This document shows positions 1 to 64,000 of a DNA stretch of 64,000 nt, one piece after another (position 1 is the first letter of the stretch; each line of letters opens with the position of its first letter). The notes under the pieces were generated by a model that was not told the origin of the DNA, did not search any database, and worked only from the letters and a program-made list of their open reading frames with translations. A program made the position numbers and the translations under genes. Origin of the DNA: a virus; IMG/VR virus record IMGVR_UViG_3300028610_000244, positions 33,869-97,868 of that record; one strand, written 5' to 3'.

Positions 1-11
1 CTTATACTTAA

Positions 12-39
12 AGTATAACACAGAACTCTGAGAATCAAA
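12..39 (-). promoter_or_regulatory. Early-type sigma70 promoter firing leftward out of the window
   Basis: Minus strand TGT-TATACT-TTAAG extended -10, same core as at 3773, 18394 and 19723; weak -35 (TTGATT/TTTGAT). Confidence 0.6.
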
Positions 40-79
40 ATGGGTTCTAAAAATTTTTGCTATTTATTTTCTGGCGTTT

Positions 80-250
80 TCAATTTGGTTCGTATTTCAA
101 CGCAGCCGTAATCAATCCATGCTCGGCGTGAAGCTGTACTTGTATCAATGCTAACGGTGCGTTAATCTGTACGCTGGCAGGCTTGGCCTTGAACCGGCTG
201 TCTGCTTCGATCTCTTTCTTCTTTGCTTCCAAGTATTCTCGAATCGTCAT
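80..250 (-). CDS. Hypothetical protein (MTIREY...)
   Basis: ORF track 80..307; internal ATG at 250 preceded by GGAGAAAG. Confidence 0.6.
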   Translation of the reverse strand: MTIREYLEAKKKEIEADSRFKAKPASVQINAPLALIQVQLHAEHGLITAALKYEPN

Positions 251-314
251 CGTCTTTCTCCACTCTTGACAGATGTCACTCGCCCTCGTCGGGGCCTCCG
301 TGCCCATCTCGCCG

Positions 315-1898
315 TCAGTCGATCAGCTTGGCTGTCCTGCTTGCAGGATCAACCCAATACTTCTGCCCGCAGAAACTGCACTTGATATTCAAGCAGTTCC
401 CGGCCTCTGGTCCCCGGAGAAACCCGCGAGCCGGTGTCCGTTCACATTCAGCACAGTAGTCCGCGTCGATCTGCTCCCACAAACCACGGCCTTCGATCTT
501 ATCGTTCTCGGCCGCTGCTGCTTCGACGTGGCCTCGAATCATCGAACCCACCGCGTCACGAACCCGCTCCCACCAACCCACTTTCTTCACGACTTCCCAA
601 TCCATGACTGTTTCAGTGGTGCCGAGCTTCGCGGTGTAGCCACCGAAGACTCTGACGACAGGTTGGATTGTCACCCTAATGGTATCGACCTCAATGATCT
701 TGGCTAACCCACCGTCTTTCCATGTCACCATGTCTCCGACCTCGAACTCCGAAACAAACTCGTCGGGGTCAATGACGTACTCGTCGTGCAATTCTCTTGT
801 AATCCCTGGACGACTCAGCAACAAAGCGTCAGCCTTGGCGAACTCCTGGGCAGAGAGTAGCCCCTGCATCCACCGCATCTTGGCAGTGAGTTGGTCGTCA
901 GCAATCGCCCAGACGCCGTGCAGCCAAGCCCGTTGCTGTTGCTTGTACCTGTCAGCTTCTTTAAGAATCTCCGCGATCCGCTTCGCACCTTCACCGCCCA
1001 TCGCCTTCTCCAAGACTTCCGCGTTATCGACTGTGTTCACAATAGTCACAGTGACAGGTTCGCCGACACGGTGACATCTGTCCTCAGCCTGTGAGAATGT
1101 CCGCTCGTTTCTTTGTGTGACCTGAGCCATGATCCGCTTTTCCAACTCAGCATAGTCTGTCTTGGTAGGGTGTAAGATTGTCTCGCCAGCGGTCTCGGCA
1201 CCCACAGGACTGTACATCCTCCGTAGCTGCTCCCGCTTCTGGGCCTGCGTCCTGGGCCAAATCTGCACGCCGGTATGGTCGTCAACGATCTTCTTCCAGC
1301 CGAGCCCGTATATCTTTCGGATGTCTATTGTCACACCTGAGCCGTGATAGGTCCGTGCCGCTCGCCCTGTTGGTGACTTGCCGAAATCCTTGTCCGCGAT
1401 GTCGCGGTACTCGTGACGTCGGTGCATGTACATCTTCCTGAAATGATCTGACCCGCCGCTCGGATTACCCATGACGATCATCTTATCAATCATCCGTTTC
1501 TGGTGACTATACAGTCCGGCATATCCATGCACCGGCCCGCCAGTGTGCCCGAAGAAGCTTCCGCCGACGTTGGAGAACGCCTCACTACATAGACGGTGCC
1601 GCAAGCGGAATTCCTTCCAGAACGCGGTCGTTTCTCTCTTGCTGAAATAGGTGCTGGAGAGAGCCCGCTCAAAGGCCATCTTGCAGCCCTCGTAACTGCT
1701 GTCGGTGTCTTGCTTACCAAGGGTAGTGACACCCTTACTCACAAGTGTTGGCCCGCTGGCTTCCGTCAACAAGAAAATCTTGCAGGTCGTGACAGTCTGG
1801 GGCCTGCCCTTGTTCGGACCTTTCTTGAACTTCTTGAACCTGTCTTGCTTGAAGCCCACATGGTAACGGCGTGTTTCTGATTTAATCTCTACGTTCAT
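315..1898 (-). CDS. Mosaic protein: N-terminal domain paralogous to 2443..3147, central string of PolA/helicase/terminase motif fragments, SH3-like segment, C-terminal Zn ribbon
   Basis: 527-aa ORF with GGAG RBS; motifs DYAELEKRIMA, SPTGR, HDEY, QAEDRCHRVG, GNPSG; C-terminal CxxC...GP...CxxC. Confidence 0.8.
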   Translation of the reverse strand: MNVEIKSETRRYHVGFKQDRFKKFKKGPNKGRPQTVTTCKIFLLTEASGPTLVSKGVTTLGKQDTDSSYEGCKMAFERALSSTYFSKRETTAFWKEFRLRHRLCSEAFSNVGGSFFGHTGGPVHGYAGLYSHQKRMIDKMIVMGNPSGGSDHFRKMYMHRRHEYRDIADKDFGKSPTGRAARTYHGSGVTIDIRKIYGLGWKKIVDDHTGVQIWPRTQAQKREQLRRMYSPVGAETAGETILHPTKTDYAELEKRIMAQVTQRNERTFSQAEDRCHRVGEPVTVTIVNTVDNAEVLEKAMGGEGAKRIAEILKEADRYKQQQRAWLHGVWAIADDQLTAKMRWMQGLLSAQEFAKADALLLSRPGITRELHDEYVIDPDEFVSEFEVGDMVTWKDGGLAKIIEVDTIRVTIQPVVRVFGGYTAKLGTTETVMDWEVVKKVGWWERVRDAVGSMIRGHVEAAAAENDKIEGRGLWEQIDADYCAECERTPARGFLRGPEAGNCLNIKCSFCGQKYWVDPASRTAKLID

Positions 1899-1923
1899 AT
1901 CGTTTCTCCAGGTACAATTCGTG

Positions 1924-2103
1924 TCATTTATTCATCACTGCTCTAACACAGGCGGCAATAATGATAGCAGTGGCAACATAGGCCAGCCCGCGTTCGGTTG
2001 GGTCCGAGATGGTTAGGAACTCGTCCTTGATCGGATTCAACTCATCACATCCCGCCAGCAATAAAAGCGGCAGGCACGCCCACATCCACATACGTCTTAA
2101 CAT
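1924..2103 (-). CDS. Small lipoprotein with C-terminal hydrophobic helix
   Basis: MLRRMWMWACLPLLLLAGC lipobox; RBS GAGGAGG before ATG 2103. Confidence 0.7.
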   Translation of the reverse strand: MLRRMWMWACLPLLLLAGCDELNPIKDEFLTISDPTERGLAYVATAIIIAACVRAVMNK

Positions 2104-2381
2104 GTCACTTCCTCCTCGAACGGTTGCTGGCAACCAGGACACCACGTATTATTTTCGAGTCCACGTCGCCCACAGGCTGTGCAAATCTTCGCCTTCTTAT
2201 GCTTCTCACAGGTGTCACCGACGACCAGAAGATTATGCAGCTCCTGCTCATCCATGTCTTCATGCTCATGGTTGAATCGGTCCAGCTCACACCTCACCTG
2301 AAATTGAACAGACAGATGGTAGTCATAGTGCTCAGTCCCGAAGCTGAAATCAAAATATACACAGGTCAAACAGCACTTCAT
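2097..2381 (-). CDS. Cys-rich (zinc-binding) hypothetical protein
   Basis: Several CxxC pairs; AGGAAG RBS. Confidence 0.65.
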   Translation of the reverse strand: MKCCLTCVYFDFSFGTEHYDYHLSVQFQVRCELDRFNHEHEDMDEQELHNLLVVGDTCEKHKKAKICTACGRRGLENNTWCPGCQQPFEEEVTC

Positions 2382-2442
2382 GTCACTTCCTTTTTACTAT
2401 ATCTATATAGTAATATCCACCGAAATTACTACATATATGTTG

Positions 2443-3147
2443 TTATTTGCGGTGCCACCATCGCTTCTTTTTCTTGGTTTCGATCCTGTCAAGTCGCGGC
2501 TCAATAGGCTCCGGGGGGATGTACTCCGGCTCGACCGGGGAGATTGTGTACTGCAACCAAAGGGGGCCTTTCGACCAACCGAGACCGCACAGCACCGGCC
2601 CTGGCTCCGCGTGGCCTGTCACCTTCATCTTAAATGATTTTATCTCTGAGAGGTTCTCGTGAATAACGACGTCAGGGCCAATCTTCTGGGCCTCAGTAAT
2701 AACCTTTCCCACCTCAATGGATGACGCAACGGCCTCCTCCGGCGTTTCGACCTGCATCTCAACCTGGACATCGTCCAGCGTGGGCTCAAAAGGTGGTAAG
2801 AGTATCGGGATGTGTTCAGTCTCAGGCTTCGCAGGTATTGGATAGTCCTCGAAGAACACTTGCCAGAACTCAGTCTTCCCAGGTTTGCCAATCGGTGAAG
2901 ACTTGAGAGCACGAGCCAGTGATGTTTTGCGGCAAGCATGGTCGCAATGCTCATCCTGCCAGCTCTGCCACGTCCAACCGTAGCCTCTAACCTCTTCGCC
3001 GAGATCGTTCAGCTCGATAATCTCGCACACAGTAAACACTCGTGGTTGCCGACGCCTCGGGCCTTTCTTGAACACCAATGTATCTTTGTCCACGGTCCAG
3101 AGCACTTTATATCTGGCGTTGTTTAATGTGGTTCGCAGTATCAACAT
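2443..3147 (-). CDS. Hypothetical protein; N-terminal domain paralogous to that of 315..1898
   Basis: Shared FKKGP...TxC.I...G.T...QD...C+..+.RAL...FW..F pattern; GAGGAG RBS. Confidence 0.75.
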   Translation of the reverse strand: MLILRTTLNNARYKVLWTVDKDTLVFKKGPRRRQPRVFTVCEIIELNDLGEEVRGYGWTWQSWQDEHCDHACRKTSLARALKSSPIGKPGKTEFWQVFFEDYPIPAKPETEHIPILLPPFEPTLDDVQVEMQVETPEEAVASSIEVGKVITEAQKIGPDVVIHENLSEIKSFKMKVTGHAEPGPVLCGLGWSKGPLWLQYTISPVEPEYIPPEPIEPRLDRIETKKKKRWWHRK

Positions 3148-3164
3148 ATCGTCTCCTCAATGTT

Positions 3165-3305
3165 CGGCCGGGAAGCCGGTCCACTTTAACTCCTCAGATT
3201 CGACGGTTAGTAGGCTAAGGCCAACGGCTATAACTTGTTACGTGTCAGTCGGCAGGTGCCGGCCGATGTCACTACGTAGTGACATCGCTCGTCAGTTCCC
3301 GGTCG
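3165..3305 (-). ncRNA. Candidate structured intergenic RNA (multi-stem junction)
   Basis: Closing stem CGACCGGGAA/TTCCCGGCCG, perfect 24-nt palindrome 3264-3287, inner GCCGG/CCGGC stem. Confidence 0.5.
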
Positions 3306-3647
3306 TTATTGCATGTCCCTCAGTATGTCACTACCTAGTGTCAAATCAGCTTCCTGAGCTTCACATAGAATCGCAAGACCCAGGTCCAGATCAGTAATGC
3401 CAGTGGCTGCACCGTGAACACTTGACGCCACAGCTCGGCGGCAGTTCATCGGGACTTCACACTGCAAGCAAAACGGGCGTTCGTCGCCGCCGTGGTGGAT
3501 TGTCAGCTTGCCGCAATCACAGAACCAAGCTGACGGGGCAATCGAAGTCCCGAAAACGTGACCGCAGTGGCTACAATACGGTTCTGATTCGCTTGTGAGT
3601 TTCGGGCTCTGGGGGATTTCTTCGTGGCACCTCTCGCACTTACTCAT
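3306..3647 (-). CDS. Zinc-ribbon hypothetical protein (MSKCERC...)
   Basis: Multiple CxxC pairs; GAGGAG RBS before ATG 3647; the longer ORF-track start overlaps the promoter. Confidence 0.7.
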   Translation of the reverse strand: MSKCERCHEEIPQSPKLTSESEPYCSHCGHVFGTSIAPSAWFCDCGKLTIHHGGDERPFCLQCEVPMNCRRAVASSVHGAATGITDLDLGLAILCEAQEADLTLGSDILRDMQ

Positions 3648-3675
3648 TGTTTGCTCTCCTCGTCTCGTTCCAGTT

Positions 3676-3766
3676 AAAAGAACTGGCCGACTCGGCTTGA
3701 TCCTATTCCGCAGCGATCCGGGCGTCCTGGTCTGCATTGCCGCCGCTACTGGCCGAGTCTGCCAAC
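3676..3766 (-). ncRNA. Candidate small RNA or leader with long terminal stem and U-rich tail
   Basis: TGGC-A-GACTCGGC pairs with GCCGAGTC-G-GCCA, followed by TTCTTTT, directly downstream of promoter 3773-3800. Confidence 0.5.
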
Positions 3767-3772
3767 ACTTAA

Positions 3773-3800
3773 AGTATAACACATTTCTGAGAAGATGCAA
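3773..3800 (-). promoter_or_regulatory. Early-type sigma70 promoter
   Basis: TTGCAT-N16-TATACT with extended -10 TG and AT-rich upstream tract. Confidence 0.75.
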
Positions 3801-3847
3801 ATATTTTGTAAGAAAAAAGTGGTAGTTTTTCTTACAAAATTATCGGA

Positions 3848-4087
3848 CTATCTGGACCGTGTAGGCAGAGCGACTTCATCCATGTTGTCGATTTCCGTTT
3901 CCTTCTCAGCCACGGTCATCTTGTCCGGTCGCTTGTCAGTCTCCCGTGTGATAACGTCGTCCATCCGTCGCCTTGCTTTGTTCGCCACCATGTTGTCAAG
4001 CCAAGCCTGGACACCAGCGGTGTCGATCATCTCGTCTTTCAACACGCGGTCCTGTGCGTCTGATACTGTCACTGTGTATGTTGCCAT
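3848..4087 (-). CDS. Hypothetical protein, last gene of fibre module (possible fibre chaperone)
   Basis: 79-aa ORF with AGGAG RBS, directly after the C1q-like gene. Confidence 0.65.
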   Translation of the reverse strand: MATYTVTVSDAQDRVLKDEMIDTAGVQAWLDNMVANKARRRMDDVITRETDKRPDKMTVAEKETEIDNMDEVALPTRSR

Positions 4088-4107
4088 GTCACTCGCTCCT
4101 TGTTATG

Positions 4108-4575: not shown

Positions 4576-4576
4576 G

Positions 4577-4849: not shown

Positions 4850-4858
4850 AGTTCTCCT

Positions 4859-6406
4859 CTATGCGTCCGTAATATAGAAAATGTTGAACGTCACTGGACC
4901 CGTGTCTACAAGCGTGGTGAAGTCCTGTGCATTGGCATCTTGGTACATAAACATTCGTATATCATTGGCTACGATATTCAGGTCCACTTGCAGGGTATCA
5001 TCGCCGGAAGCATTGACTCGAATACTAGCTATTCCAGCAACCGCATTTCCAGTTAGATCAGAAGCTTTTATATAGAGTACATCACCGCCCGAAGATAGTT
5101 GAAAACCACCAGTGGTGTCACCTTTTCCAAGATTATCTACTTCTGAAATAATATCACCATTCCAGATGTCTTCTGTTTTGACTTTCAAGGTCGTTGCATT
5201 TGTGCCATCCTGTACAATTAGGCGAAGAAATCTAAGCACTCTACCAGCAGTACCATCCCCAACCAAGTCGGGGGTTATGGTGACATAGTCTCCGTTGTCA
5301 GTATAGGTCAGTCCGGCACCTGTACGCAACGCACCATCACTACTGGCTGCACCAAGATAGTCCGGTGTCGCACCTGAGTCAACCCCTACTTTCCCCATGA
5401 GGGAGTGACTTGAGCCATCAGCGGAAACATGTGTTGCCGCTGCATCCCAACCCGTCAACTTACCTGTCGGCATCAAACCATTCTGGGCGTTAGTAGCGTC
5501 CCGCGTAGCTGCGGTATGCTGTGCCGATGTCATGTGATAGTATTCGTCAGTGGTCCCGCCCTGCAATCCTGCCGTGTTGTTGTGTGTAATTGTTGAGCCA
5601 AACTGAACCCAGGAGGCTCCGTTCCAGACATAGTTTCTGTCCTCGTCTTCGACCCAACAGGCTCCGCCTTCGTCACCAAAAGCGGTGTAGGCCACAAACC
5701 AAACGCTGCCATCGAATTCAACGATATCGTTGACGGCGGCACCGTCCCAGTTGGCATGGGGTCCGCCCCCGGTTGCATCTAACAGGAATCTTTCACCCGT
5801 AACTTCTGACGGAGGAACCGCTGTATTATCCACGATGTCAATGACACTATTCTGCCAATCAAGCCCAATCAGCAAGCCATCGACATAATCTTTTCTGGTC
5901 ACATGCGTTCCGTCCGTTGGGGGGTTTGAAGAAATGATCGTGGCATGTGTCACTGTATCAGCGGTCCCAAGACCTAATTCGGCGGCGGTGACTACATGGG
6001 GATTGCCACTCGTCAGTCCTCGGTGTGTAGCGTTGAGACCGACTATGCTGTGACTCGACCCATCACTTGAGGCATGAGCAGTCCCTGCATCCACGGCCCA
6101 TGTCGTGCCGTCCCATACGTAGTTTGCGTCTACATCTTCGACCCAGCAAGCTCCGCCTTCATCACCTGCTGCGGTGTAGGTGACTGCCCAGGTAGTGCCA
6201 TTGAATTCAACTACATCGTTGACAGCGGCTCCATCCCAGTTGGCATGGACTCCGCCCCCGGTGGGGTCTAACAAGTATCTGTCACCATCAACTTCTGTCG
6301 GAGGGGCAGCGGTGTTATCTGCAATCGCCAGAACACTATTCTGCCAATCAAGGTCTGACAGTGCCAGACCACCACCAGCTCCGCTTTTAATTCCTGATGC
6401 AAACAT
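4859..6406 (-). CDS. Fibre/adhesin protein with two DUF2793-like repeats
   Basis: Two copies of DWQNSV...PP.EV.G.R.LLD.TGGG.HANWDGAAVND.VEF.G..W...GGACWVED; acidic Gly/Thr-rich composition. Confidence 0.75.
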   Translation of the reverse strand: MFASGIKSGAGGGLALSDLDWQNSVLAIADNTAAPPTEVDGDRYLLDPTGGGVHANWDGAAVNDVVEFNGTTWAVTYTAAGDEGGACWVEDVDANYVWDGTTWAVDAGTAHASSDGSSHSIVGLNATHRGLTSGNPHVVTAAELGLGTADTVTHATIISSNPPTDGTHVTRKDYVDGLLIGLDWQNSVIDIVDNTAVPPSEVTGERFLLDATGGGPHANWDGAAVNDIVEFDGSVWFVAYTAFGDEGGACWVEDEDRNYVWNGASWVQFGSTITHNNTAGLQGGTTDEYYHMTSAQHTAATRDATNAQNGLMPTGKLTGWDAAATHVSADGSSHSLMGKVGVDSGATPDYLGAASSDGALRTGAGLTYTDNGDYVTITPDLVGDGTAGRVLRFLRLIVQDGTNATTLKVKTEDIWNGDIISEVDNLGKGDTTGGFQLSSGGDVLYIKASDLTGNAVAGIASIRVNASGDDTLQVDLNIVANDIRMFMYQDANAQDFTTLVDTGPVTFNIFYITDA

Positions 6407-6415
6407 GTCACTCCC

Positions 6416-6769: not shown

Positions 6770-6782
6770 TTTGTTCTCCTTG

Positions 6783-7628: not shown

Positions 7629-7658
7629 TTAGTATAGTTCCTTTAGCATTATAGGACC

Positions 7659-7687
7659 ATACTACCATAAATGCAGGCTAAATGCAA
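7659..7687 (-). promoter_or_regulatory. sigma70 promoter
   Basis: TTGCAT-N17-TAGTAT with extended TG. Confidence 0.65.
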
Positions 7688-7689
7688 GC

Positions 7690-8025: not shown

Positions 8026-8044
8026 TTCAGTTCTCCTTGCTTGA

Positions 8045-12835: not shown

Positions 12836-13099
12836 CTATGACATCACTGCGAAGCAGATGTAAGCACCAAGAGCCAGTGCAGTGAACACCGAGCCAATCC
12901 ACACATTGAATGTGATCGCGTGGCCGGTGTGGATGTCACTCCGGGTCTTGAGAGCCCGACTAATTTCTTTGTAGCATGGATCGCAAAGATCACCGAGCTT
13001 GAAGTCACAGGTGCTTCCTCTGTGACCTTTGATCTCGTTGCTTCCATCGGTGTGTTCCTTCCCACACCACTCGCACTTGTATGTAATCGTATAGGTCAT
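12836..13099 (-). CDS. Zinc-finger protein with C-terminal TM helix
   Basis: CEWC...DLCDPC plus a hydrophobic C-terminus. Confidence 0.7.
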   Translation of the reverse strand: MTYTITYKCEWCGKEHTDGSNEIKGHRGSTCDFKLGDLCDPCYKEISRALKTRSDIHTGHAITFNVWIGSVFTALALGAYICFAVMS

Positions 13100-13100
13100 G

Positions 13101-13265
13101 TCACTCTCTTCCCATAGATTCTAAATCCGCCGACAGATCATGGAAGCAGTTCATTGCTTTCTCCCTGTCTGCAAACTCTTCACTCATTTGAGCCAGCTTG
13201 TTCTCGTGCTCCACATACCCTTTCGGGTCTGTCTCAACTATAACGACTTGTACCCTGAACGCCAT
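13101..13265 (-). CDS. Hypothetical protein (MAFRVQ...)
   Basis: ATG 13265 lies just after the stop of the 40-aa ORF; same frame as ORF track 13101..13322. Confidence 0.6.
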   Translation of the reverse strand: MAFRVQVVIVETDPKGYVEHENKLAQMSEEFADREKAMNCFHDLSADLESMGRE

Positions 13266-13266
13266 G

Positions 13267-13389
13267 TCACTCACCGTCCTCTCGGCACCATGTCCGACTC
13301 TTCTCTTTCTTCTTGTCCTCATGGACCCTCGTCCCTGGCGGCATCTGCCTACGCGGAAGTCGCGGTTTCAATTTCTTCTTAGCCGCCAT
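13267..13389 (-). CDS. 40-aa basic peptide MAAKKKLKPRLPRRQMPPGTRVHEDKKKEKSRTWCREDGE (not in ORF track)
   Basis: Translated by hand; GGAGGT RBS; fills the gap between rtcB and the next gene. Confidence 0.65.
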   Translation of the reverse strand: MAAKKKLKPRLPRRQMPPGTRVHEDKKKEKSRTWCREDGE

Positions 13390-13393
13390 GTCA

Positions 13394-14593
13394 CTACCTC
13401 CGCCTTCTTGACTTTGCTTTGATTGAGAGGACCGGCGTCAAGCTGTACTCGACGTTGCAGAGATCAGCCTGATTACGCATGACATCTTCGATATCCTTAT
13501 AGGCTCCAGGTGCCTCATCCAAATCTGTTTTGGATGTTAGGTCATGCAAGACACCGAGATCATCAAGTAGCCGCCTCTGGGCTTCCAGGTCCAGCGTCTT
13601 CTTGGCGGCAGTGCGTGACATCGGTCGGCCGGCACCGTGGGATGTGGATAAGAACGACATCTTCTCGCCAGTGTGCGAGACAATGAACGACCTCGTGCCC
13701 ATGCTTCCAGGGATGATTCCTCTGGCGTCACCGAAGTAAGGACCAGCAGCACCCTTGCGATGCACGAGCACATTCCGGCCGAGGTGGTTCTCCATCTTTG
13801 CGTGGTTGTGACATATATCAACGTGGCTAGTGACACAGGTGCCGGGCCAGATCGCTCGGAACGCTTTCAAAATATTCAGCATCATCTTCGCTCTGCTCTT
13901 CTTGGCGAAGTCGATGCAGTAAGCCATCTCCCGCATGTACTCATCATAGCCCTTATGGCCGCGACGAAAGAACGCCAAATCACTGTCAGGTGTCACCTGT
14001 GAGAAATTCTTTTCATTTTCTTGCTTCGCCCAATTATTATAGAAGTCTGCAACTTGTTTACCGAGGTTCCTGGAACCGCTGTGAATCATCACCCAGATGT
14101 CACCGTGTTGGTCAACCTGGACTTCGATGAAGTGATTGCCGCCGCCAAGTGTACCGAGCTGCTTGAGAGCCCGCTCGTATTGCTTGTTGACCACCTGCCC
14201 CATCAAATCAAGGTCCGGCATTTCGTGAACACCGCACGGCTTGTCGTGCCACTTGTGCCCAACAGGTACGGCCTGCTGGATCAGTGCTCGGAGATTCTCC
14301 TGGTGATCTCGCATCGCACCGATTACCATACCGCCCAACCGGCACGCTATCATCCCGCAGCCGATGTCAACACCTACGGCGTTTGGGACCACGACATCCT
14401 GGGTCGCCAAGATACCACCGATGGGCATACCATAACCGACGTGCATGTCAGGCATAGCTGCAAGGTGATGGACTGCGAACGGCAGACGTCTCAGGTTTCT
14501 GAGCTGCTTCCAGCAGTCTTCACTCAGCGACTTTGGGTTCACCCAGAACTTCACAGGCAGGTGCCCGTCCTCAAGGTTCCATTCAGCTTTCAT
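13394..14593 (-). CDS. rtcB: RtcB RNA ligase (3'-phosphate/5'-OH)
   Basis: MPDMHVGYGMPIGG, VGVDIGCGM, GTLGGGNHFIE, HSGSR, HRKGA, HGAGR, DEAPGAYK; start MKAEW after GGAGG. Confidence 0.95.
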   Translation of the reverse strand: MKAEWNLEDGHLPVKFWVNPKSLSEDCWKQLRNLRRLPFAVHHLAAMPDMHVGYGMPIGGILATQDVVVPNAVGVDIGCGMIACRLGGMVIGAMRDHQENLRALIQQAVPVGHKWHDKPCGVHEMPDLDLMGQVVNKQYERALKQLGTLGGGNHFIEVQVDQHGDIWVMIHSGSRNLGKQVADFYNNWAKQENEKNFSQVTPDSDLAFFRRGHKGYDEYMREMAYCIDFAKKSRAKMMLNILKAFRAIWPGTCVTSHVDICHNHAKMENHLGRNVLVHRKGAAGPYFGDARGIIPGSMGTRSFIVSHTGEKMSFLSTSHGAGRPMSRTAAKKTLDLEAQRRLLDDLGVLHDLTSKTDLDEAPGAYKDIEDVMRNQADLCNVEYSLTPVLSIKAKSRRRR

Positions 14594-17805: not shown

Positions 17806-17816
17806 GGTATAATTGC

Positions 17817-28731: not shown

Positions 28732-29894
28732 CGTGTCACCACCTTTACTTCTTTGGCCGCTCGTGTCACCGCTGTGTACAGCCACTTGTTTCCGTCTGTG
28801 CCGAAGGCTGCTGATTCATCGAAGATCAGCACCTTGTCCCACTCCGAACCCTGGCTCTTATGTACGGTCAACGCATAACCGTAATCAAACTCCTGGGCTT
28901 CCTTCCTGATCCAGAAAGGTATCTGCGTTGGCTCATCTGACATGAAGTGGTGCCGGTGAGCCTCGACGGCTGTATAGTTTGCCTTGCAGTCTGGGTCAAA
29001 GATTATTAGGTCCAGGAACTCATCACCGTCAAAACAAGATTCTGTTTCCCAGATCGCTCCGTTGAGAAGCCCGACTTCGTGATCGTTTCGCAGACACACC
29101 AGCCGGTCGCCCTCTTCGGGTGTCGGTGACTTTCTGCCCAGTAAGGTTCTGATCTTTCGGTTCGTGGCTTTGCGAGTAGCGTTGCGGCCCACGAGTATTT
29201 GGTCGAAGCCCATGACGTCGTCAGGTGTCACTGAACCCCACTCCACAACCATGTCACCGTCCGGCCTGATCCACTCACCCTGCCTGATTCGGGTAGCGAG
29301 CTGGATGATCGGATTGCCTTGAGCCTGTCGGTGAATCTCATCGAGCATAAAGTCGGGCTCTGCTTGGATGAACCATCCGGCTCCGAACACTGGTGGCAAC
29401 TGAGCAGGATCGCCCAGCACGAGTATCTTGGTGCCGAAGCTCATCAAGTCCATTGCCATCTGCTCGTTAACCATAGAACATTCATCGACAATGATTAGGT
29501 CCGCCGTCTTGACAGGTGAATCTTCGTTCAGGACAAAGTTCGGTGAGTTGAGCTTCTTGGTCTCGAACGCGATCTTTTGCTCCAGGTCTGCGATCACCAC
29601 CGGGTCGTCGGTGTTGGCTAACGAAACCTCCAGGTCTTTCAGCTTCTTTTGGCTGCGGTCTTTGGGGCAGTAGATGAGCTGATGAATCGTAAAGGCTTCG
29701 CAACCTTTCTGTCTCAAGACGTAGGCTGCTTTACCAGTGAACGCACAGAACAACGTGGCTCCCGAGGCGGCATACTTGGCAATGGTTGTCTTGCCCGAGC
29801 CTGCAAAGCCGAAGAGGCGGAACACCTGTTGGTCCGAGTGCATCCATCGGCCGATGGCGTCTATTGCCTGCTGTTGTTGTCCCGATAACTTCAT
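28728..29894 (-). CDS. RecD/Dda-like SF1B helicase
   Basis: GFAGSGKT, AFTGKAA, DECSM, GDPAQLPPV, HRQ, YALTVHKSQGSE, YTAVTRA. Confidence 0.92.
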   Translation of the reverse strand: MKLSGQQQQAIDAIGRWMHSDQQVFRLFGFAGSGKTTIAKYAASGATLFCAFTGKAAYVLRQKGCEAFTIHQLIYCPKDRSQKKLKDLEVSLANTDDPVVIADLEQKIAFETKKLNSPNFVLNEDSPVKTADLIIVDECSMVNEQMAMDLMSFGTKILVLGDPAQLPPVFGAGWFIQAEPDFMLDEIHRQAQGNPIIQLATRIRQGEWIRPDGDMVVEWGSVTPDDVMGFDQILVGRNATRKATNRKIRTLLGRKSPTPEEGDRLVCLRNDHEVGLLNGAIWETESCFDGDEFLDLIIFDPDCKANYTAVEAHRHHFMSDEPTQIPFWIRKEAQEFDYGYALTVHKSQGSEWDKVLIFDESAAFGTDGNKWLYTAVTRAAKEVKVVTR

Positions 29895-32285: not shown

Positions 32286-33764
32286 CTATGCTGCAAGTAT
32301 ATCAGTTTCAGAATCGTATGTCAACAACCAATCTCGAATTCTTCCATCAATTACTACTGAGGCATTGTCGAACTTCTTCCGAAGCGAGCCTATGATGTCA
32401 ACATCCTTGGTATTATCGGCAACAATGTCGATATAATTTACGTGATTTTTCTGACCGGCACGATGATTTCTATCCTCACTCTGGTGGCGTTCCTTCATCT
32501 TAAAGCTGTTCGAGTAGTAGATTGTCGTCAAGGCTTCGTTCAGCGTATGACCTTCGCCCATGCTATCAGGTGTCGCCACAATGTATTGGACCTCATCTAC
32601 TGGACACGTCTTGAATCGGAACTTGTTCTCTTCACGTTTGTCTTCATTGACGGTCCCATCCCACCGTACAGCCTTGTCACCCAGCAGGTCACAGATCAGG
32701 TCAATGTCTTGGATGAACCGAGCCCAGATGATTGCTTTATGCGGCAAGTCTTGTGTGATCTCGTTCAGCATCTTGAGCCGGGGATTCTTGTCCTCGATCA
32801 TGTGCATCTCATTCTCGTCACCAGACGGTAGGTAGCCATTGGCAACTTGTTGCAGACGGAGCAGCCGAGTAATCGCCAGCGGTGTGAAGATCATGTCACC
32901 ATTGATCTCAGTCATAAACTCATCTTCTAATTCCTTGTACAGCTTCCACTGCTTCGCCGTCATCTCGAAACCAGCGTATGAGTAGAGCTTATCTGGCAGA
33001 TCAAGCACATCCTCTTTCAGGACGCGGGACGACATCTCTTTCACCAGCTCGGACAGAATCTCCAGGTTCTTGAACCCGACGCACTGATCGAACTCGCGGT
33101 CAGCCTTGGCGTTGTAGCCTTTGATCCAGACACCGAAGAACGTCTTGAAGCATTGGAAGCTGCCGAGGCCGTAAGGTGTGTTGGCCCAGAAGTTCTTGTC
33201 TAAGAATCGGAACTGAGTATAGATGTCGAACGGTGTATTGGTGATAGGTGTCCCGCAGAGTGTCCGTTTGAATACGGCGTAGTCGGACGCCGCCATCACG
33301 GTTCTGGTGATCTTCGCGGACGGTGTCTTGATTCGGTTACTCTCATCACAGACGAACAGGCAGCGGTGCTTCTTGAGAAACGCCTTCGCCAGCTTCTTAC
33401 CTGCTGCCGTCTTAATCCCTGGGTAACTCATTGCCAGGATCGGAAAGCTTCCGGCGTCATTGTTGAGGATCGAATTGCAGGCCATCATGTGTTTCTTCGT
33501 CTTGGCCTTCTTGGTCTGGAACGCAATCATCGAGTGGTCTATGCCCAGGTGATCGGGTATCTCGTACAGTATCCAGTTGGTGTGAAGCCCAGGAGGTGCG
33601 AGGATGAACAGTGCGTCGATGCTGCCTGCGGCGAATAACTTCTCAGCGGTGCTGAGTGCCAGCCACGTCTTGCCGGTTCCTTGTTCCCAGTGGATCGCTC
33701 GGACTTCATCGAGTCCGTGTGTTTTCAGCTCTTCTGCCTGATGATCGAATGGGTCAGTTTTCAT
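32286..33764 (-). CDS. SNF2-family (SF2) helicase
   Basis: PFDHQ, EQGTGKT, DES..IK, GTP, LLRLQQ, G.G.TL, QSEDRNHRAGQ. Confidence 0.92.
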   Translation of the reverse strand: MKTDPFDHQAEELKTHGLDEVRAIHWEQGTGKTWLALSTAEKLFAAGSIDALFILAPPGLHTNWILYEIPDHLGIDHSMIAFQTKKAKTKKHMMACNSILNNDAGSFPILAMSYPGIKTAAGKKLAKAFLKKHRCLFVCDESNRIKTPSAKITRTVMAASDYAVFKRTLCGTPITNTPFDIYTQFRFLDKNFWANTPYGLGSFQCFKTFFGVWIKGYNAKADREFDQCVGFKNLEILSELVKEMSSRVLKEDVLDLPDKLYSYAGFEMTAKQWKLYKELEDEFMTEINGDMIFTPLAITRLLRLQQVANGYLPSGDENEMHMIEDKNPRLKMLNEITQDLPHKAIIWARFIQDIDLICDLLGDKAVRWDGTVNEDKREENKFRFKTCPVDEVQYIVATPDSMGEGHTLNEALTTIYYSNSFKMKERHQSEDRNHRAGQKNHVNYIDIVADNTKDVDIIGSLRKKFDNASVVIDGRIRDWLLTYDSETDILAA

Positions 33765-33991: not shown

Positions 33992-34308
33992 AGCACGCTC
34001 CGGTAATATTCACGCCACATCTCGGTCCAGTATTCCTCATTGGCTTCCATGCAGGTGTCGCACAGGAACACCCAGTTCTTCTTCTCGTCCACGTAGGCTG
34101 TATTTTGCACCCTACGGTGGCCTCTACAGAAACACGGGCCGTAGAGGCCGTCACAGAGCGGCAAAGCTGTGTGGGATCGTATCCAGCGGTGAAGCCACAG
34201 TTTGATGTTGTATCTCTTTCGCAGGAGCATAAGTCTAACCTTGAGACCGCTCGCACGTCTGAGCCGCAAGCGTACACCTTTGAACTCAACCTCGACAGAT
34301 TTCGTCAT
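33988..34308 (-). CDS. Hypothetical Cys-containing protein
   Basis: R.NTAY.D...NW..LC..C......YW..MW.EYY pattern; ATGA-coupled. Confidence 0.65.
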   Translation of the reverse strand: MTKSVEVEFKGVRLRLRRASGLKVRLMLLRKRYNIKLWLHRWIRSHTALPLCDGLYGPCFCRGHRRVQNTAYVDEKKNWVFLCDTCMEANEEYWTEMWREYYRSVL

Positions 34309-34571
34309 ACGTACACCTTTGCGTTCAACACGGTTTGCACTACGCCGTCCTCTTCGACAACGAAGATGTAGTTGCCCAGTTCCTTGAACTCAAAGTCTAG
34401 GGCAAACACACCAGCCTCTAACTTGTACAGTTTTAATTTAGTTATGTCATTACTACGAGGCCGATGGCTGGGGCCGTAGACACGAACCGCCACAACAGAG
34501 GCGTTCTTGTCCACGGCACCGTAAGCCAGCCGGTCTTTACCGGGTCGATATGTATCCCTGAGAAACTTCAT
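34305..34571 (-). CDS. Small Ig-like beta-sandwich protein
   Basis: V.VYGP......L.....G.F...F.F...G.Y..VV. Confidence 0.55.
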   Translation of the reverse strand: MKFLRDTYRPGKDRLAYGAVDKNASVVAVRVYGPSHRPRSNDITKLKLYKLEAGVFALDFEFKELGNYIFVVEEDGVVQTVLNAKVYV

Positions 34572-34574
34572 AGC

Positions 34575-34976
34575 TTATCCGAAGTGCCCGCCTCCCGCAG
34601 TGTTAGCGAGGATTTCCTGCAAAACTAAATCTTGAGCCACGATCTTTGCATCCACGGCTGCTACGTCGTTTACTACGACTGCGATGCCGCTACCCACCTG
34701 CTCGATGGAAGTGTTTCTGACGGCGAATTGCTTGACGACATCCATGCCGGCGTCATCGACAATGCTGACGGACCACTCACCAACTTCATCAGGCACGAAA
34801 GAGCCCACTACGATCTTTGTTCCAGGCACCTGAGTCAACCCACTGCCGATGGTCAGAGCTGTGCCGAACACTGCGTCAGCCTCATCGTAGACCTGAGCTG
34901 TTGGATTGTCTGACGCCGGATCGCCGTTACACCGGGCTCGGAACGCAATTGTGTCACCTACATTATACGTCTTCAT
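34575..34976 (-). CDS. Ig-like acidic protein with C-terminal helix (virion-protein-like)
   Basis: Y.VGD.I.F...G.F.PD..GEW.V.I; GAGGA RBS. Confidence 0.6.
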   Translation of the reverse strand: MKTYNVGDTIAFRARCNGDPASDNPTAQVYDEADAVFGTALTIGSGLTQVPGTKIVVGSFVPDEVGEWSVSIVDDAGMDVVKQFAVRNTSIEQVGSGIAVVVNDVAAVDAKIVAQDLVLQEILANTAGGGHFG

Positions 34977-35426: not shown

Positions 35427-37037
35427 TTATGCTCTGTACTTTCCTTTCCAGACGGTAATAATAGTACGCTTGCCGTTAGGGTATGTCACGATATGTGAAT
35501 GCGACCAACTTGATGGGCCTCTGGTGTACCAGACGTCGGACTTAATGTCACAGGATACACCTGCCACATAAATACCATCCTGGATTCCTGCTTTGTGCAA
35601 GTGACCAATGTTGGCTTTGCGTCCCATCCTGCTTAGGTTGGCTGCATTACCACGGGCTCCGTTAGGCCCAAGGGAGCCGTGCATACCGCACTCAATGTTG
35701 GCGTCCGTAATCAGTATACTTTCATCTTCACGCATGAAGTGTGCGATCCGATCTTCCAGGCCGAGCATCCGGCAGGCATGTTCCAAGACATGAAACGTTC
35801 GGCCAAAGGGATCAGCTTCCATAGCTTCATACACGGCAGCATTAAGCTTTAGCCAGATCACGGCATTCTTAGGATCGTCCAGACCTTCACGGCTGTCCAG
35901 CCAGCGTTCAATCCAGGGACGATCATGGTTGGCGTCCACGACATAGGTCTGGCAGAAGTCACGATGTAGGTCACGGAGATGGTCGTTACACGCCACGAAT
36001 TCCTTACGGAGATCATTCCATGCACCGGAACGGACGAAGTTTTGGAACCGTTTATGCAGCGACTTCTTTGACCAATGGTTTGTCACGGACCCAGCCATGA
36101 GATCGTGGACGAATTGAGACTTGGGGCGTAGCTCATCCAGCATGTGCTGAGAACAACGATTGACGCTTTCGTCTAACAGCATCAAGGCGTGAGCGTCACC
36201 CCATGTAATCGCCTCGACATGTTTATTCTCACGCACGACACCTTTCTTAACCACGACATCAAGATCGTAGATTGTGCCGTCGTCTGTAGCGTTCAACTGA
36301 CGTAGCCACCAGTTGCCGTCGCTGTCCACTTCGACAATCACGGCACCGTAGCAGTGATGGAACTCAGCCTTGAGCCCTTCACGCTTCTGGATATAGTTAC
36401 GCTGAGTGACAGTGCCGGTCGTGTAGTTGAACTTGGTGTTCTCTTTCCGTCCGGTTGCAATGGACTCCATCGCAAACTTCACTTGTGGAAAGATTGCACT
36501 GTCCCGGCCCGTGTAAGAATCGAAACCAGTCAAAGGACGAACCGCTGTAGGAAGAATGTTCATCTCACCGCACCAACATAGGTGGTTAGCAATAAGGTGA
36601 CGCTTATCCACAATATAAGGCACAACCTTTTGATCGTACCAAAGCTCTTTCTCCCGGCTTTTGACTTTGCCACGCTTGACAGATAGCCTGCCGAAAGCGT
36701 TTTGGTTGTAGGTGAATGTTCCCACCATCATCTGAGCATCATAGTGCTTTGCCAAAGCCAATAAACTATTCCACACAGGGGTATGAACATGAGTGTTGTT
36801 CTGGGCTGAGGTCAGAATATATCGCTTGACCACGCCACTTTTGGGTAAAGGACATCTTACCGCTTCAATCCCTCGGACACTTCCATCAACGATCTTCTTG
36901 GTCCGATCAATCCCGGCTTTCTTTAGATGATAGTAAATGCAGGCTCTACCAACATCTAAGCTCTTGGCAGCAGCTTGAATGTTGCCTCCATGCTCTTGAT
37001 AAGCACTGACTACTTGCTCCGTTGTTACTTTTGGCAT
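35427..37037 (-). CDS. HTH plus calcineurin-like metallophosphoesterase, resembling T5 A1 nuclease
   Basis: N-terminal HTH; TSAQNNT, TTGTVTQRNYIQK..G.KAEFHH; GDAH, HD, ANHD, MHG, GHLH metal ligands; the A1 match is from recall. Confidence 0.7.
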   Translation of the reverse strand: MPKVTTEQVVSAYQEHGGNIQAAAKSLDVGRACIYYHLKKAGIDRTKKIVDGSVRGIEAVRCPLPKSGVVKRYILTSAQNNTHVHTPVWNSLLALAKHYDAQMMVGTFTYNQNAFGRLSVKRGKVKSREKELWYDQKVVPYIVDKRHLIANHLCWCGEMNILPTAVRPLTGFDSYTGRDSAIFPQVKFAMESIATGRKENTKFNYTTGTVTQRNYIQKREGLKAEFHHCYGAVIVEVDSDGNWWLRQLNATDDGTIYDLDVVVKKGVVRENKHVEAITWGDAHALMLLDESVNRCSQHMLDELRPKSQFVHDLMAGSVTNHWSKKSLHKRFQNFVRSGAWNDLRKEFVACNDHLRDLHRDFCQTYVVDANHDRPWIERWLDSREGLDDPKNAVIWLKLNAAVYEAMEADPFGRTFHVLEHACRMLGLEDRIAHFMREDESILITDANIECGMHGSLGPNGARGNAANLSRMGRKANIGHLHKAGIQDGIYVAGVSCDIKSDVWYTRGPSSWSHSHIVTYPNGKRTIITVWKGKYRA

Positions 37038-54883: not shown

Positions 54884-55410
54884 TAGCCCCTCCCAAGTGT
54901 TCGCCGTGTTGACGCGAGCAACCTTGTTTTCTTCATCTTCCCATCGGCCACAGGATAGCCCAGCCATGCGTTTGAATTGGAGCCACCCTGGAAATACTCG
55001 GTTTCCTTTTCCAGCACAGCAACTTTCTTCCGGCTCATCTTGACTTTCAGTCCAGAGGTGTCAAGGTTGGGTGCTGCATAGAGTGAGCTTGCCAGGGCGG
55101 ACATCGCGTACTCAGCACAAGCCTCTTCCAGCTCGGCCGGGAATGGGTCCACTGTGAATCCAGTGCGGGGGTCATAGACCCCAGATCGCGGGCACTCGGT
55201 AGACTGATCTACGTCTTCCCGATCACCCGCGAACGTCCATCTGGAGTCCATGTAATCCGTTGCCCTGACTATCGCCTCCTCAATCTCCGTATCAGAGGAG
55301 GATGAATAACTACCGCCCCGGTCGTCGTGGTAGGCTTTGAAAACAACCACGCTTATGTAGGCGTTCGCCGTTGATAGCGGTGCGTCTGGGTCTTGTACTA
55401 CGAAAGCCAT
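54883..55410 (-). CDS. Head-tail adaptor
   Basis: AN.YISV...AY...RG......E.A+.RATDY.D...G......Q....PR...P..L..A..E.A. Confidence 0.8.
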   Translation of the reverse strand: MAFVVQDPDAPLSTANAYISVVVFKAYHDDRGGSYSSSSDTEIEEAIVRATDYMDSRWTFAGDREDVDQSTECPRSGVYDPRTGFTVDPFPAELEEACAEYAMSALASSLYAAPNLDTSGLKVKMSRKKVAVLEKETEYFQGGSNSNAWLGYPVADGKMKKTRLLASTRRTLGRG

Positions 55411-55907
55411 GTCACAATAACCTCAACGATTTCGGCCTTGGTGATTGTCGGATCGTCTGTCAGCGTCTGAATATCTTTGACTTTGGGTCTCGGAGTCTTC
55501 GAGTGCTGATCGACCCACTTCTCTTTTTCAATGCAGTTTACGGCCGCGATGATCTCAGCCTGTCTTGCATTCGGCACAGGAGGATCGGTCGCCTGCTCTT
55601 CCAGCTCTGCAACCTGTTCGGGGGTGCCGAGGTCATCTTCGCTGTCAGTGTTCTCCCGCGTCTGTTCGGGCTTCTCTGCTTCGACTGCTTCTTTCGCGGC
55701 CTCGGCTTCGGCTTTCAGAGTCTTGGCCGTGACCTCTTTGACGTCAACAGCATAACTCTTGGTGAAGTATTTGGTGACGCCCTCGACTTCGAGAGCAGAG
55801 CCGGTGAAGAGATGAACACCGTTAATGAATTGAATCTTGTTCAGCTTTTTTGTTTTGCCTTTGAGGCAACCTGTCAGGGTCATTCGGATTGTAATAGGTG
55901 CGGACAT
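55398..55907 (-). CDS. Hypothetical head-module protein
   Basis: LTG...GKT..L....F..G N-terminus; GGAG RBS. Confidence 0.65.
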   Translation of the reverse strand: MSAPITIRMTLTGCLKGKTKKLNKIQFINGVHLFTGSALEVEGVTKYFTKSYAVDVKEVTAKTLKAEAEAAKEAVEAEKPEQTRENTDSEDDLGTPEQVAELEEQATDPPVPNARQAEIIAAVNCIEKEKWVDQHSKTPRPKVKDIQTLTDDPTITKAEIVEVIVTWLS

Positions 55908-62420: not shown

Positions 62421-62874
62421 ATTCTTTCTCCCAATCGTCAGGGTCAAGGGAAGCTTGCACAACGAGAACGCCGGCAGTGACATTCGCGTCAACAGATAGG
62501 TGATCGCGGTACTTCGGGCTGTTCGCCTTCGCCAACGCGATCAGCAAGGAATCGGAATAGTGACGTTCTGTCCCGCACACCTTGCCTTTGAAATATACAT
62601 TCTTGGTGACACCGTTGATGGCACGATCATGGACGGCGGCGTCGATCAGCTCGCAGTATCCTTGCATTGCGGCCGTCTCGCGGCTCTTCAATTCTTTTTC
62701 TTTGGTCATGCAGTAGACCATCCGGCCAGGATCGACGCCTGCCATGATCGCAGAATACCGCTTGCGGCCGGATACTTCGAGGTATGCGAAGTACAGGTCA
62801 AGCTCAGTGCTTGTGATGTCCGACAACGCCGGCAAGCCCTTTTCGGTGTCAATTTTTACTGGTACATGACTCAT
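62338..62874 (-). CDS. terS: Terminase small subunit
   Basis: RA..GV...VY.KG...G....YSD.LL..L.KA..P.KYRD. Confidence 0.8.
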   Translation of the reverse strand: MSHVPVKIDTEKGLPALSDITSTELDLYFAYLEVSGRKRYSAIMAGVDPGRMVYCMTKEKELKSRETAAMQGYCELIDAAVHDRAINGVTKNVYFKGKVCGTERHYSDSLLIALAKANSPKYRDHLSVDANVTAGVLVVQASLDPDDWEKEYVGVRTNKGGTEPVRKKSVASTVKNDG

Positions 62875-62883
62875 ATACGGGCT

Positions 62884-62912
62884 ATTATAGGACATTCCCG
62901 TCAAGATGTCAA
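62884..62912 (-). promoter_or_regulatory. Consensus sigma70 promoter, near-leaderless terS transcript
   Basis: TTGACA-N17-TATAAT, 9 nt before ATG 62874. Confidence 0.85.
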
Positions 62913-63128
62913 GGGAATTCCGCGAATTTCGACTTTTCCCCGCACAGTTGCGGTCTCAAGCCTGTCACCACCTTTTGCTATCTCGCCGGTGAAGAATGTG
63001 GCGAAACCTTCCTCCTCGTCGGCGGTCACGCAGCGGTCAACTAATGCACCGTCGCAGAATACCTCGACATCGTGGTCCCAGACATCTTCTCGCCAGCCTG
63101 GATCGGTCTTGTTTGCTGATAGCCGCAT
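62901..63128 (-). CDS. Small beta protein, paralog of the C-terminal domain of 63128..63697
   Basis: +.CDG..V....TAD...G...+......R+.T.TV.GK+EI.G shared. Confidence 0.7.
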   Translation of the reverse strand: MRLSANKTDPGWREDVWDHDVEVFCDGALVDRCVTADEEEGFATFFTGEIAKGGDRLETATVRGKVEIRGIPLTS

Positions 63129-63697
63129 CAGTCCAGCCCCGTAATTTCGATTTTTCCGTGAACAGTGAGGGTCTTGATTCGTCCCTGCTCGTTCTTCTTG
63201 TAGTATTTGGCGACACCCGCGATGGTGTCAGCCGTGTGGGCGTTCTCGACTTGGACGCCGTCACAGAGAATCTTGAGTGCTGTGTTCTCATGGATTTCAG
63301 GATCGTAGCCGGGCTCTCCTTCCCTCACCGAGACATGCGTGACCTTGCCGTTCTCGTCACGGATTATACCGGGCTCTGGCTGCATCTCGGCAGCTATCTT
63401 GACTGCTTCGACTGCCGGTGCGGTCTCTGCCTGCTTCTCTATCGCAACCTCGGCCAGCGTCTTGTGCGTCAGCACTGGCTCTTTGGTTTCCACCATTGGT
63501 AGGTCTTTCAGAATATCGTTCGGCCGCATCTGCCGATTTATCCTGGCGGAGATAGACTCACCCCTCAACCCCTCCATCGCGTCGATGCGTTCACCTATCT
63601 CATTTAGGTACAGCCGGGCCATCTTGAAGTAGCCTTCCTTCGCAAACATTTCCGCGAATGTCCCCAGGTCTCTGATACTGTGTTCTGACATATCCAT
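63128..63697 (-). CDS. Hypothetical protein
   Basis: TAATG and TGATG coupling at its two ends. Confidence 0.7.
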   Translation of the reverse strand: MDMSEHSIRDLGTFAEMFAKEGYFKMARLYLNEIGERIDAMEGLRGESISARINRQMRPNDILKDLPMVETKEPVLTHKTLAEVAIEKQAETAPAVEAVKIAAEMQPEPGIIRDENGKVTHVSVREGEPGYDPEIHENTALKILCDGVQVENAHTADTIAGVAKYYKKNEQGRIKTLTVHGKIEITGLD

Positions 63698-63993
63698 TAC
63701 CATAGCTCCAATTGAACTTGTTTCGATCTCGGTTTCGATCCTGTCGCTTTATCACGCCGCTCCGTCAATTCTTTTTCTTGTTGCCGCACTACGCCCAGAA
63801 GGGTGGTCTTCTTGTCTTCGGGTATCTCCGGGCCGTGCGAGTAGTTCATCTTGGTTCCCATGAACTCTGCATCAGTGCAGCCCATCCACTTCCACGGGAA
63901 GATGTGCGGGATCACCTTTATCGTCGTGGCCCTGAAATGGGCCGCAATGAACTTCGTGTCGATAAAATTGAATTTCTTCGACATGACTCTCAT
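63697..63993 (-). CDS. Hypothetical protein
   Basis: 98-aa ORF at the window edge, coupled to the downstream gene. Confidence 0.55.
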   Translation of the reverse strand: MRVMSKKFNFIDTKFIAAHFRATTIKVIPHIFPWKWMGCTDAEFMGTKMNYSHGPEIPEDKKTTLLGVVRQQEKELTERRDKATGSKPRSKQVQLELW

Positions 63994-64000
63994 TACTTCT

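Follow-up and report, generated by a model that had tools for sequence, protein, structure and literature searches.

A selected GTGACA word, dispersed along the genome and linked to start codons, in a lineage of uncultured phages

RESULTS

Genome content and excess of the GTGACA word

The hexamer GTGACA (TGTCAC on the opposite strand) is strongly over-represented in a 64,000-nucleotide stretch of phage DNA, hereinafter the window, which comprises bases 33869-97868 of the 97,868-bp IMG/VR virus record IMGVR_UViG_3300028610_000244. By gene content, this is a siphovirus-type phage: the genes for portal, terminase, tape measure, and tail proteins are accompanied by replication genes (DNA polymerase A, primase, and two helicases) and by genes for RtcB, a ligase, a dUTPase-like protein, an NT5C nucleotidase, a dATP/dGTP diphosphohydrolase-like protein, and a homolog of the A1 “DNA transfer protein” of phage T5. 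A clamp-loader subunit, a dCMP deaminase, an AAA ATPase, and a radical SAM protein are encoded outside the window. The minus strand carries 147 of the 151 called genes and is hereinafter referred to as the coding strand. The nearest named relatives, identified through the portal protein, are the Bordetella phages FP1 and CN1 and Pseudomonas phages such as MP1412 (~47% identity), and megablast of the first 20 kb matched no named phage.

The window contains 84 copies of TGTCAC and 51 of GTGACA, that is, 135 copies compared with the ~31 that a random hexamer would have on two strands, making this the top hexamer. The dispersed word, which can be written (A/G)GTGACA(T), spans the entire window (1..64000), with the 84 copies reading on the minus (coding) strand and the 51 on the plus strand; its density is ~3.5 per kb in window positions 1-20000 and ~1.5 per kb after that. 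An earlier note on this DNA, made from the sequence alone, had put the number of copies in the first ~7 kb at about 25-30; we counted 25, against ~3.4 expected. In the whole 97.9-kb genome, the word is again the top hexamer, the coding strand containing 156 copies and the opposite strand 63. The order-2 Markov expectations are 48.1 and 23.3, respectively (z-scores of 15.5 and 8.2), and the excess persists on both strands against a maximal-order Markov model (104.7 and 39.7 expected).

Synonymous codons were shuffled, with the protein sequence kept, in the interiors of genes of at least 150 aa, from which the first 2 and the last 12 codons were dropped so that neighboring start regions were left out. 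Compared with these shuffles, gene interiors contain 62 copies of GTGACA against 21.2 (z-score = 10.4) and 44 copies of TGTCAC against 17.8 (z-score = 6.5), and the 7-mers GTGACAT and ATGTCAC are each enriched ~4-fold (16 against 4.2 for ATGTCAC). Frames 0 and 1 contain nearly equal numbers of copies (58 and 52), and frame 2 is barred because the word would place an in-frame TGA there. Every gene module, the structural genes included, shows 2.3-3.3-fold enrichment on both strands. The flanks of the word contribute little beyond an avoidance of T at position -1, a preference for T at +6, and an avoidance of G at +7. The GTG-ACA codon pair is 3-5-fold more frequent than the product of the codon frequencies, and Val-Thr dipeptides exceed the amino-acid expectation in 6 of 6 word-bearing genomes (157 compared with 115 in this phage; the smallest excess is 71 compared with 64), with no such excess in the sister genome G003, which lacks the word (65 compared with 64).

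Chance, base composition, codon usage, and amino-acid content are ruled out as the cause by the Markov models and the codon shuffles: the GTGACA excess is that of a selected nucleotide word. The earlier note had read the genome-wide excess, present in all modules and in both orientations, as the mark of such a word, and this interpretation withstood hexamer z-scores, the amino-acid-preserving shuffle, and the reading-frame distribution, with no confinement to one frame. Further support comes from the Val-Thr shift and from the clade specificity and site conservation described below.

The start-linked form

A distinct form of the word overlaps the start codon. Against an expectation of 3.2 copies, the 8-mer GTGACATG (GTGAC-ATG) is present 47 times in the coding strand and only twice in the opposite one; 41 of the 47 copies open an open reading frame (ORF) of at least 30 aa, and 35 are accompanied by a Shine-Dalgarno-like sequence. 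The consensus of these junctions is GGAG(G)-N1-3-(A)GTGAC-ATG, where the word lies between the Shine-Dalgarno sequence and the ATG, overlaps the latter, and places it 7-8 nt past the Shine-Dalgarno sequence. In 19 of the 47 cases, the upstream ORF ends at the TGA within the word; in 4, this TGA backs up a TAG stop (a TAG-TGA tandem), and in 7, stop and start form an ATGA overlap. The word supplies the upstream stop in about half of the cases. Stop and start codons are at most 15 nt apart at 29 of 35 motif starts compared with 45 of 118 other starts. Of the sixteen words of the form NTGANATG, only GTGACATG is enriched, with 47 of the 78 occurrences; therefore, stop-start geometry alone is not the cause.

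About 28% of the starts carry the word, compared with ~0.1% by chance, and the opposite orientation was found at none of the 147 called starts examined. In non-coding DNA away from starts, the word is enriched only about 2-4-fold, compared with more than 100-fold at starts; the start-linked form is therefore a distinct effect, and starts are not merely a cheap place for the word. The ORFs that begin with the motif are mostly small (40-160 aa), tightly packed, non-core, and without counterparts in relatives. Because they are unrelated to each other, gene duplication that included the start regions was rejected as their source. In the early half of the genome, there are twelve near-identical sigma-70-like promoters, all in the coding direction, that consist of an A/T-rich tract followed by ATTTGCAT, N17, and TATACTTTAAG; copies are located at window positions 15, 3776, 18397, 19726, and 21101 (coding-strand positions), with further copies upstream of the window. 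The genes directly behind these promoters have an ordinary A-rich spacer instead of a GTGAC-ATG junction. Altogether, a Shine-Dalgarno sequence, 1 to 3 nt, and G-TGA-C-ATG form the standard junction of ~40 small, mostly non-core genes downstream of sigma-70-type promoters.

The eight starts singled out in the earlier note (2103, 2381, 4087, 6406, 13099, 13265, 13389, and 55410) all read GTGAC-ATG on the minus strand, as stated there. The junctions at 2101..2108, 2379..2386, and 4085..4092 open ORFs of 59, 94, and 79 aa and are preceded by GAGGAGG, AAGGA, and AAGGAG, respectively, and the one at 6404..6411 opens a 515-aa DUF2793 fiber-like gene, with the upstream TAA located 12 nt before the ATG. 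At 13097..13104 (87-aa ORF) and 13263..13270 (54-aa ORF), the upstream ORF terminates at the TGA of the word, and at 13387..13394, the junction of a 40-aa ORF directly after rtcB combines a TAG-TGA tandem stop with a GGAGG Shine-Dalgarno sequence. The structural module contains just one clear start-linked copy, at 55408..55415 (175-aa gene), which is not kept at the orthologous start in six relatives; the others lie in regions of small accessory genes. Two copies of GTGACATG are found inside helicase genes, also on the minus strand, at 29250..29257 (388-aa SF1 helicase) and at 32892..32899 (492-aa SNF2 helicase). In both, the ATG is in frame and would yield a C-terminal product of 174 and 202 aa, respectively; these copies are possibly internal starts or chance occurrences. 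The concentration of oriented copies at tight stop-start junctions points to a probable role of this form in translation or at gene junctions.

Distribution among relatives and site conservation

Relatives were recovered by portal, A1-like, and capsid searches of IMG/VR and of metagenome-assembled genomes. The word is enriched 2.2-4.4-fold in all sampled loci with portal identity of at least 73% or A1-like identity of at least 82%, which span GC contents of 42-57%, and in the five larger relatives it ranks 1st to 5th among coding-strand hexamers and is enriched on the other strand, too. There is no enrichment in relatives with portal identity of 71% (G003 and G004), 60%, or 42-48%, or in capsid relatives with identity of 70% or less. 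In its relation to this phage, the complete, word-free genome G003 matches the word-bearing G002, both in the number of shared genes and in their amino-acid identity. The capsid relatives are found in metagenome-assembled genomes of many phyla (mis-binned phage contigs).

In orthologous genes, 18-40% of the sites are at the same position, compared with a hexamer baseline of 9-12%, and the totals are similar; the few shared positions together with the similar totals indicate site turnover with maintained density. In nucleotide alignments of closer relatives, sites are kept above other aligned hexamers in most pairs, often ~2-fold: for example, 20 of 33, 12 of 20, and 32 of 64 sites, with baselines of 0.30, 0.32, and 0.38, respectively. 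Pooled over genome pairs, which are non-independent, 380 sites are conserved compared with 195 expected. Selection holds the word at ~2 copies per kb on either strand, over synonymous choice and through site turnover. Relatives with genomes of 60-64 kb contain 4-11 copies of GTGAC-ATG compared with 47 in this genome, which has ~35 kb more accessory DNA.

Other words show a different distribution. GCGC is missing from the 97.9-kb genome, in which ~440 copies would be expected from base composition, and is absent or nearly so in all close relatives (L009-L026 and L055-L062), including the word-free G003 and L026. Most close relatives have purged CTAG as well, with no copies in five of them; this phage has 46 copies. 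The GCGC-avoiding group is therefore wider than the GTGACA group, which suggests similar host pressure combined with a lineage-specific determinant of the word. According to the annotation of the T5 record, the nick consensus of that phage contains GCGC. Additional strongly over-represented words are GGTGGGTT (27 copies here and 20 in G003) and CCTGGG/CCCAGG/CCWGGA, which occur alongside CTAG depletion; the enrichment of CCWGG-type words together with CTAG depletion is a signature like that of very-short-patch repair in Dcm-type hosts.

Pairs, palindromes, and neighboring words

The earlier note had also pointed to inverted pairs of the word at 3267 (ATGTCAC-TACGTA-GTGACAT, 3267..3290), 9871, and 16462. 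The three pairs exist and carry no signal: the 28 pairs that lie within 40 nt are close to the number expected from site density (~19.5), their spacings all differ with none preferred, and in five relatives, inverted pairs are at or below expectation. Lacking both a pair excess and a preferred spacing, the word is neither a dimeric-regulator operator, with paired half-sites at fixed spacing in intergenic regions, nor a hairpin.

One known site that resembles the word is matS, the MatP site of enterobacterial Ter domains, a 13-bp palindrome (GTGAC-R-N-Y-GTCAC) bound by a dimer (PMC3116907). The matS half-site GTGAC(A/G) equals the phage word, and GTGACG is the second most enriched variant in this phage. 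However, matS is palindromic and dimer-bound, whereas the phage word occurs as single sites; no perfect copy of the matS palindrome GTGACRNYGTCAC and only a few one-mismatch matches are present in the phage. The absence of a perfect palindrome and of an inverted-pair excess rules out matS identity.

There is no specific depletion of the transition neighbors GTGATA, GTAACA, ATGACA, GCGACA, and GTGGCA, and GTGACG shows mild enrichment; conversion of the very-short-patch type was rejected on the basis of these undepleted neighbors. Extended pairing with the 3' tail of 16S rRNA was likewise rejected: GTGAT-type words, which are able to pair with this tail, are not enriched, and the word lies 1-3 nt from GGAGG. 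A small RNA of the phage directed against the motif was also considered and discarded, given that no non-coding candidate bearing CAUGUCAC was found. Among the matches listed in an IMG/VR scan for GGAGGNAGTGACATG, only single matches in unrelated contigs occurred.

Genes that follow the word

The genes of this phage were compared for presence in the word-bearing genomes G002, G001, and G005 and absence in G003. Only three genes occur in each of the four word-bearing genomes that are sufficiently complete and have no counterpart in the complete word-free sister: the A1-like gene (35427..37037, minus strand) and two small genes, encoding proteins of 133 and 88 aa (34305..34976, minus strand), with the same distribution. 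The A1-like protein (536 aa; phrog_1745, E = 1e-159) contains an N-terminal Fis-type helix-turn-helix (HTH) domain and, at 82-89% identity, is the most conserved protein of the clade; it is a speculative candidate for the reader of the word. Recognition by the primase or the polymerase was rejected because the word-free G003 and the word-bearing relatives show equal conservation of the primase, polymerase, and helicases. Neither a methyltransferase nor a dedicated nickase was found among ~50 phage proteins scanned, and no recombinase or RecBCD inhibitor was noticed among them.

The A1-like gene belongs to a T5-like pre-early-type block located mid-genome (window 34305-38400), which comprises genes for the diphosphohydrolase-like protein, the NT5C nucleotidase, the A1-like HTH-phosphoesterase, a small membrane protein, and the 133-aa and 88-aa proteins. 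G003 retains the genes flanking the block and lacks the A1-like, 133-aa, and 88-aa genes. The order of the A1-like gene, the small membrane protein gene, and the 133-aa protein gene mirrors that of A1, T5.005, and A2 in T5; the 133-aa protein is syntenic with A2, but with similarity at only E = 0.037, it was not accepted as an A2 homolog. In this protein (window 34578-34976) and seven orthologs, a beta-rich domain and a helix are followed by an invariant GGGGHFG tail.

Other features of the genome

In window positions 13394-18000, genes for the RtcB RNA ligase, the dUTPase-like protein, and an ATP-dependent ligase-like protein are clustered with two tRNAs, Gln-UUG (17734-17805) and Ile-GAU (17924-17997), an arrangement consistent with an RNA-repair or counter-defense unit. 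A gene block found only in this genome includes a gene (window 8045-11845) for a 1266-aa protein with a C-terminal beta-propeller (weak PD40/SGL/lactonase-type matches) and no PHROG match. Upstream of the window, at genome positions 8,700-15,500 (locus L053), there is a ~6-kb island that contains the radical SAM gene and has no coding-strand copy of GTGACA. The island is flanked by arrays of TTATCGGAC/GTCCGATAA boxes, which resemble the -10 element of sigma-28 promoters and number 24 genome-wide. The “direct terminal repeat” of the record is only 144 bp long and could reflect overlapping assembly ends of a circularly permuted genome rather than a T5-style long repeat.

DISCUSSION

We tentatively favor, as quite possibly correct, the interpretation of (A/G)GTGACA(T) as a selected recognition word with two uses, one dispersed and the other start-linked. 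The dispersed copies would be single, non-palindromic sites for a DNA-acting factor that could bind, nick, mark, or protect DNA. Such a factor would belong to the phage lineage, and the evidence leans slightly toward its being encoded by the phage rather than by the host. The start-linked word may act in mRNA, as a start-associated sequence coupling termination to re-initiation; alternatively, one factor could control the whole class of accessory genes.

Several observations weigh against this interpretation. Exact ATG register would be unnecessary for a reader of DNA, so the two layers may differ in cause. The antisense copies are left unexplained by a role in RNA only, as is the 47:2 orientation at starts by a role in DNA only. 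Orthologous core genes do not retain the start-linked form at their starts. There is also no methyltransferase, nickase, or obvious sequence-specific DNA-binding protein that tracks the trait cleanly, and contigs that encode homologs (54-56% or 41% identity) of the sole nucleic-acid-related candidate, the A1-like protein, lack the word. T5 itself has no comparable hexamer in its first 50 kb (top z-score of ~5 compared with 17 here) and was accordingly dropped as a precedent for an A1-linked word. In addition, the gene-distribution argument is based on two complete word-free genomes, G003 and G008, and the gene calls come from our own simple caller, which combines ORFs and codon usage.

For the start-linked use, the closest parallel appears to be the start-associated sequence (SAS) of Cluster K mycobacteriophages (Pope et al. 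2011), a 13-bp sequence, GGGATAGGAGCCC, with a Shine-Dalgarno core that is present in 11-19 copies, is essentially confined to starts, and is kept, in the form of extended sites, at orthologous genes (PMC3203893). Both are short, asymmetric, ATG-linked repeats located a few nucleotides from starts in one orientation, mostly at non-structural genes of unrelated families within one clade, and both sometimes hold the upstream stop. The word of this phage differs in that it comprises 5-7 nt without a Shine-Dalgarno core and lies downstream of a separate GGAG(G), abutting or overlapping the ATG; in that, besides the 47 start-linked copies, ~170 further copies occur in genes or antisense; and in that orthologous starts do not retain the motif. 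The start form thus seems to behave like the Cluster K SAS without being a strict member of that family.

The word could instead be a host-read signal of the Chi type, or another one, that is recognized, for example, by RecBCD or AddAB and is gathered by the phage to tame the nuclease or to recruit recombination, with starts being the cheapest place for it. Chi sequences are known to be G-rich, which the phage word is not. Chi is also set by the host enzyme and equally enriched in the host, and it has no counterpart to the start-locked form; given the >100-fold enrichment at starts compared with 2-4-fold in non-coding DNA, the cheapest-place argument fails for the start class. The dispersed layer does resemble that of Chi-rich phages, where a short asymmetric word is kept dense by selection, in genes as well, and density rather than position matters: the phage word occurs at single sites on both strands, turns over at a held density, and is conserved at the site level, and the scanned proteins showed no sign of a recombinase or RecBCD inhibitor. 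For phages without a recombination module of their own, enrichment in Chi is documented (Bobay et al. 2013, PMC3784561; Zheng et al. 2025, PMC12315714). Nevertheless, sister phages with the same GCGC/CTAG avoidance, hence probably with similar hosts, lack the word, and we regard a host-read signal as unlikely, though still a serious rival. Among the functions that the earlier note had listed (a binding site for a genome-coating or protective protein, a modification target, or a Chi- or HIP1-like host signal), the host signal is accordingly somewhat disfavored. HIP1 of cyanobacteria and DNA uptake sequences are host-wide words of 8-12 nt that are also found in phages. Like the word described here, they are short and over-represented in coding DNA on both strands, but a simple host imprint is hard to reconcile with a word-free sister lineage whose restriction-avoidance profile is the same.

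Two further explanations start from the junctions. The Shine-Dalgarno sequence followed by GTGACATG could be a cassette providing micro-homology for the swapping of small accessory genes, with the in-gene copies being separate or secondary. T4-type phages offer a partial parallel, in that promoter-early stem-loop cassettes flank their shuffled small early genes; in both cases, a repeated regulatory motif is found at the borders of hypervariable small early genes, although the T4-type cassettes are longer units of promoter and hairpin, whereas the junction in this phage is an 8-nt stop-start junction without a hairpin. The motif does flank unrelated, non-core small ORFs, is not conserved at orthologous core-gene starts, and is far more abundant in this genome, with its ~35 kb of extra accessory DNA, than in the 60-64-kb relatives. 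However, 8-15 nt of homology is very short for recombination, and a cassette does not account for selected copies that lie on both strands within conserved structural genes; we consider this explanation quite unlikely. Decidedly improbable is a role in translation only, where the word would matter in mRNA, tuning initiation or stop-start coupling, and the in-gene excess would be a by-product, for instance, of cryptic internal starts. The exact ATG register, strict orientation, Shine-Dalgarno association, and tight junctions fit such a role, as does the analogy with start-associated sequences (PMC3203893), but the antisense word, which is unable to act in mRNA, is as strongly enriched (44 compared with 17.8, and 16 compared with 4.2 for ATGTCAC), structural genes are enriched although they almost never use the start form, and the GTGAT-type words that pair with the 16S rRNA tail are not enriched. 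A mutational or repair bias, in which very-short-patch-like repair or another directed process would turn neighboring words into GTGACA, appears extremely unlikely. These genomes do show other extremes of composition (CCWGG-type words enriched, CTAG depleted or absent, and GCGC absent), but the transition neighbors of GTGACA are not depleted, unlike CTAG/CTAGG relative to CCAGG in the same genomes, the sites are kept above baseline, the proteins are shifted toward Val-Thr, and the start-codon register is unexplained by such a bias.

A more speculative reading takes GTGACA as a “self” mark for the T5-A1-like module, which comprises an HTH-metallophosphoesterase and small partners: a phage that destroys host DNA would bind or spare its own word-dense DNA, and the start copies would tie the expression of accessory genes to the same factor. 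In its favor, the A1-like gene and its two neighbors follow the word-bearing genomes; the lack of the word in the contigs with 41-56% A1 homologs and in the first 50 kb of T5 speaks against it, and we consider it very unlikely. How the unmodified T5 genome escapes A1-driven degradation has been stated to be an open question by T5 workers (bioRxiv 10.64898/2026.04.02.716235), and the “self” mark, if true, would offer an answer.

Densely kept short words in virus genomes usually mark an interaction that decides the outcome of infection, as with Chi and RecBCD, uptake sequences, and restriction sites. Across this whole clade of uncultured phages, synonymous sites and, apparently, amino-acid pairs bear the imprint of a single word that has reshaped them, and the same word forms the junction of ~40 accessory genes. 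The boundary of the trait is sharp, with word-free sisters that share the gene set and the avoidance profile; therefore, finding the reader is realistic. The start-linked form provides a second, independent example of start-associated sequences, the function of which has been unsolved since 2011, and because the word is also present on DNA outside starts, this lineage may help separate RNA-level from DNA-level models of how such sequences work.

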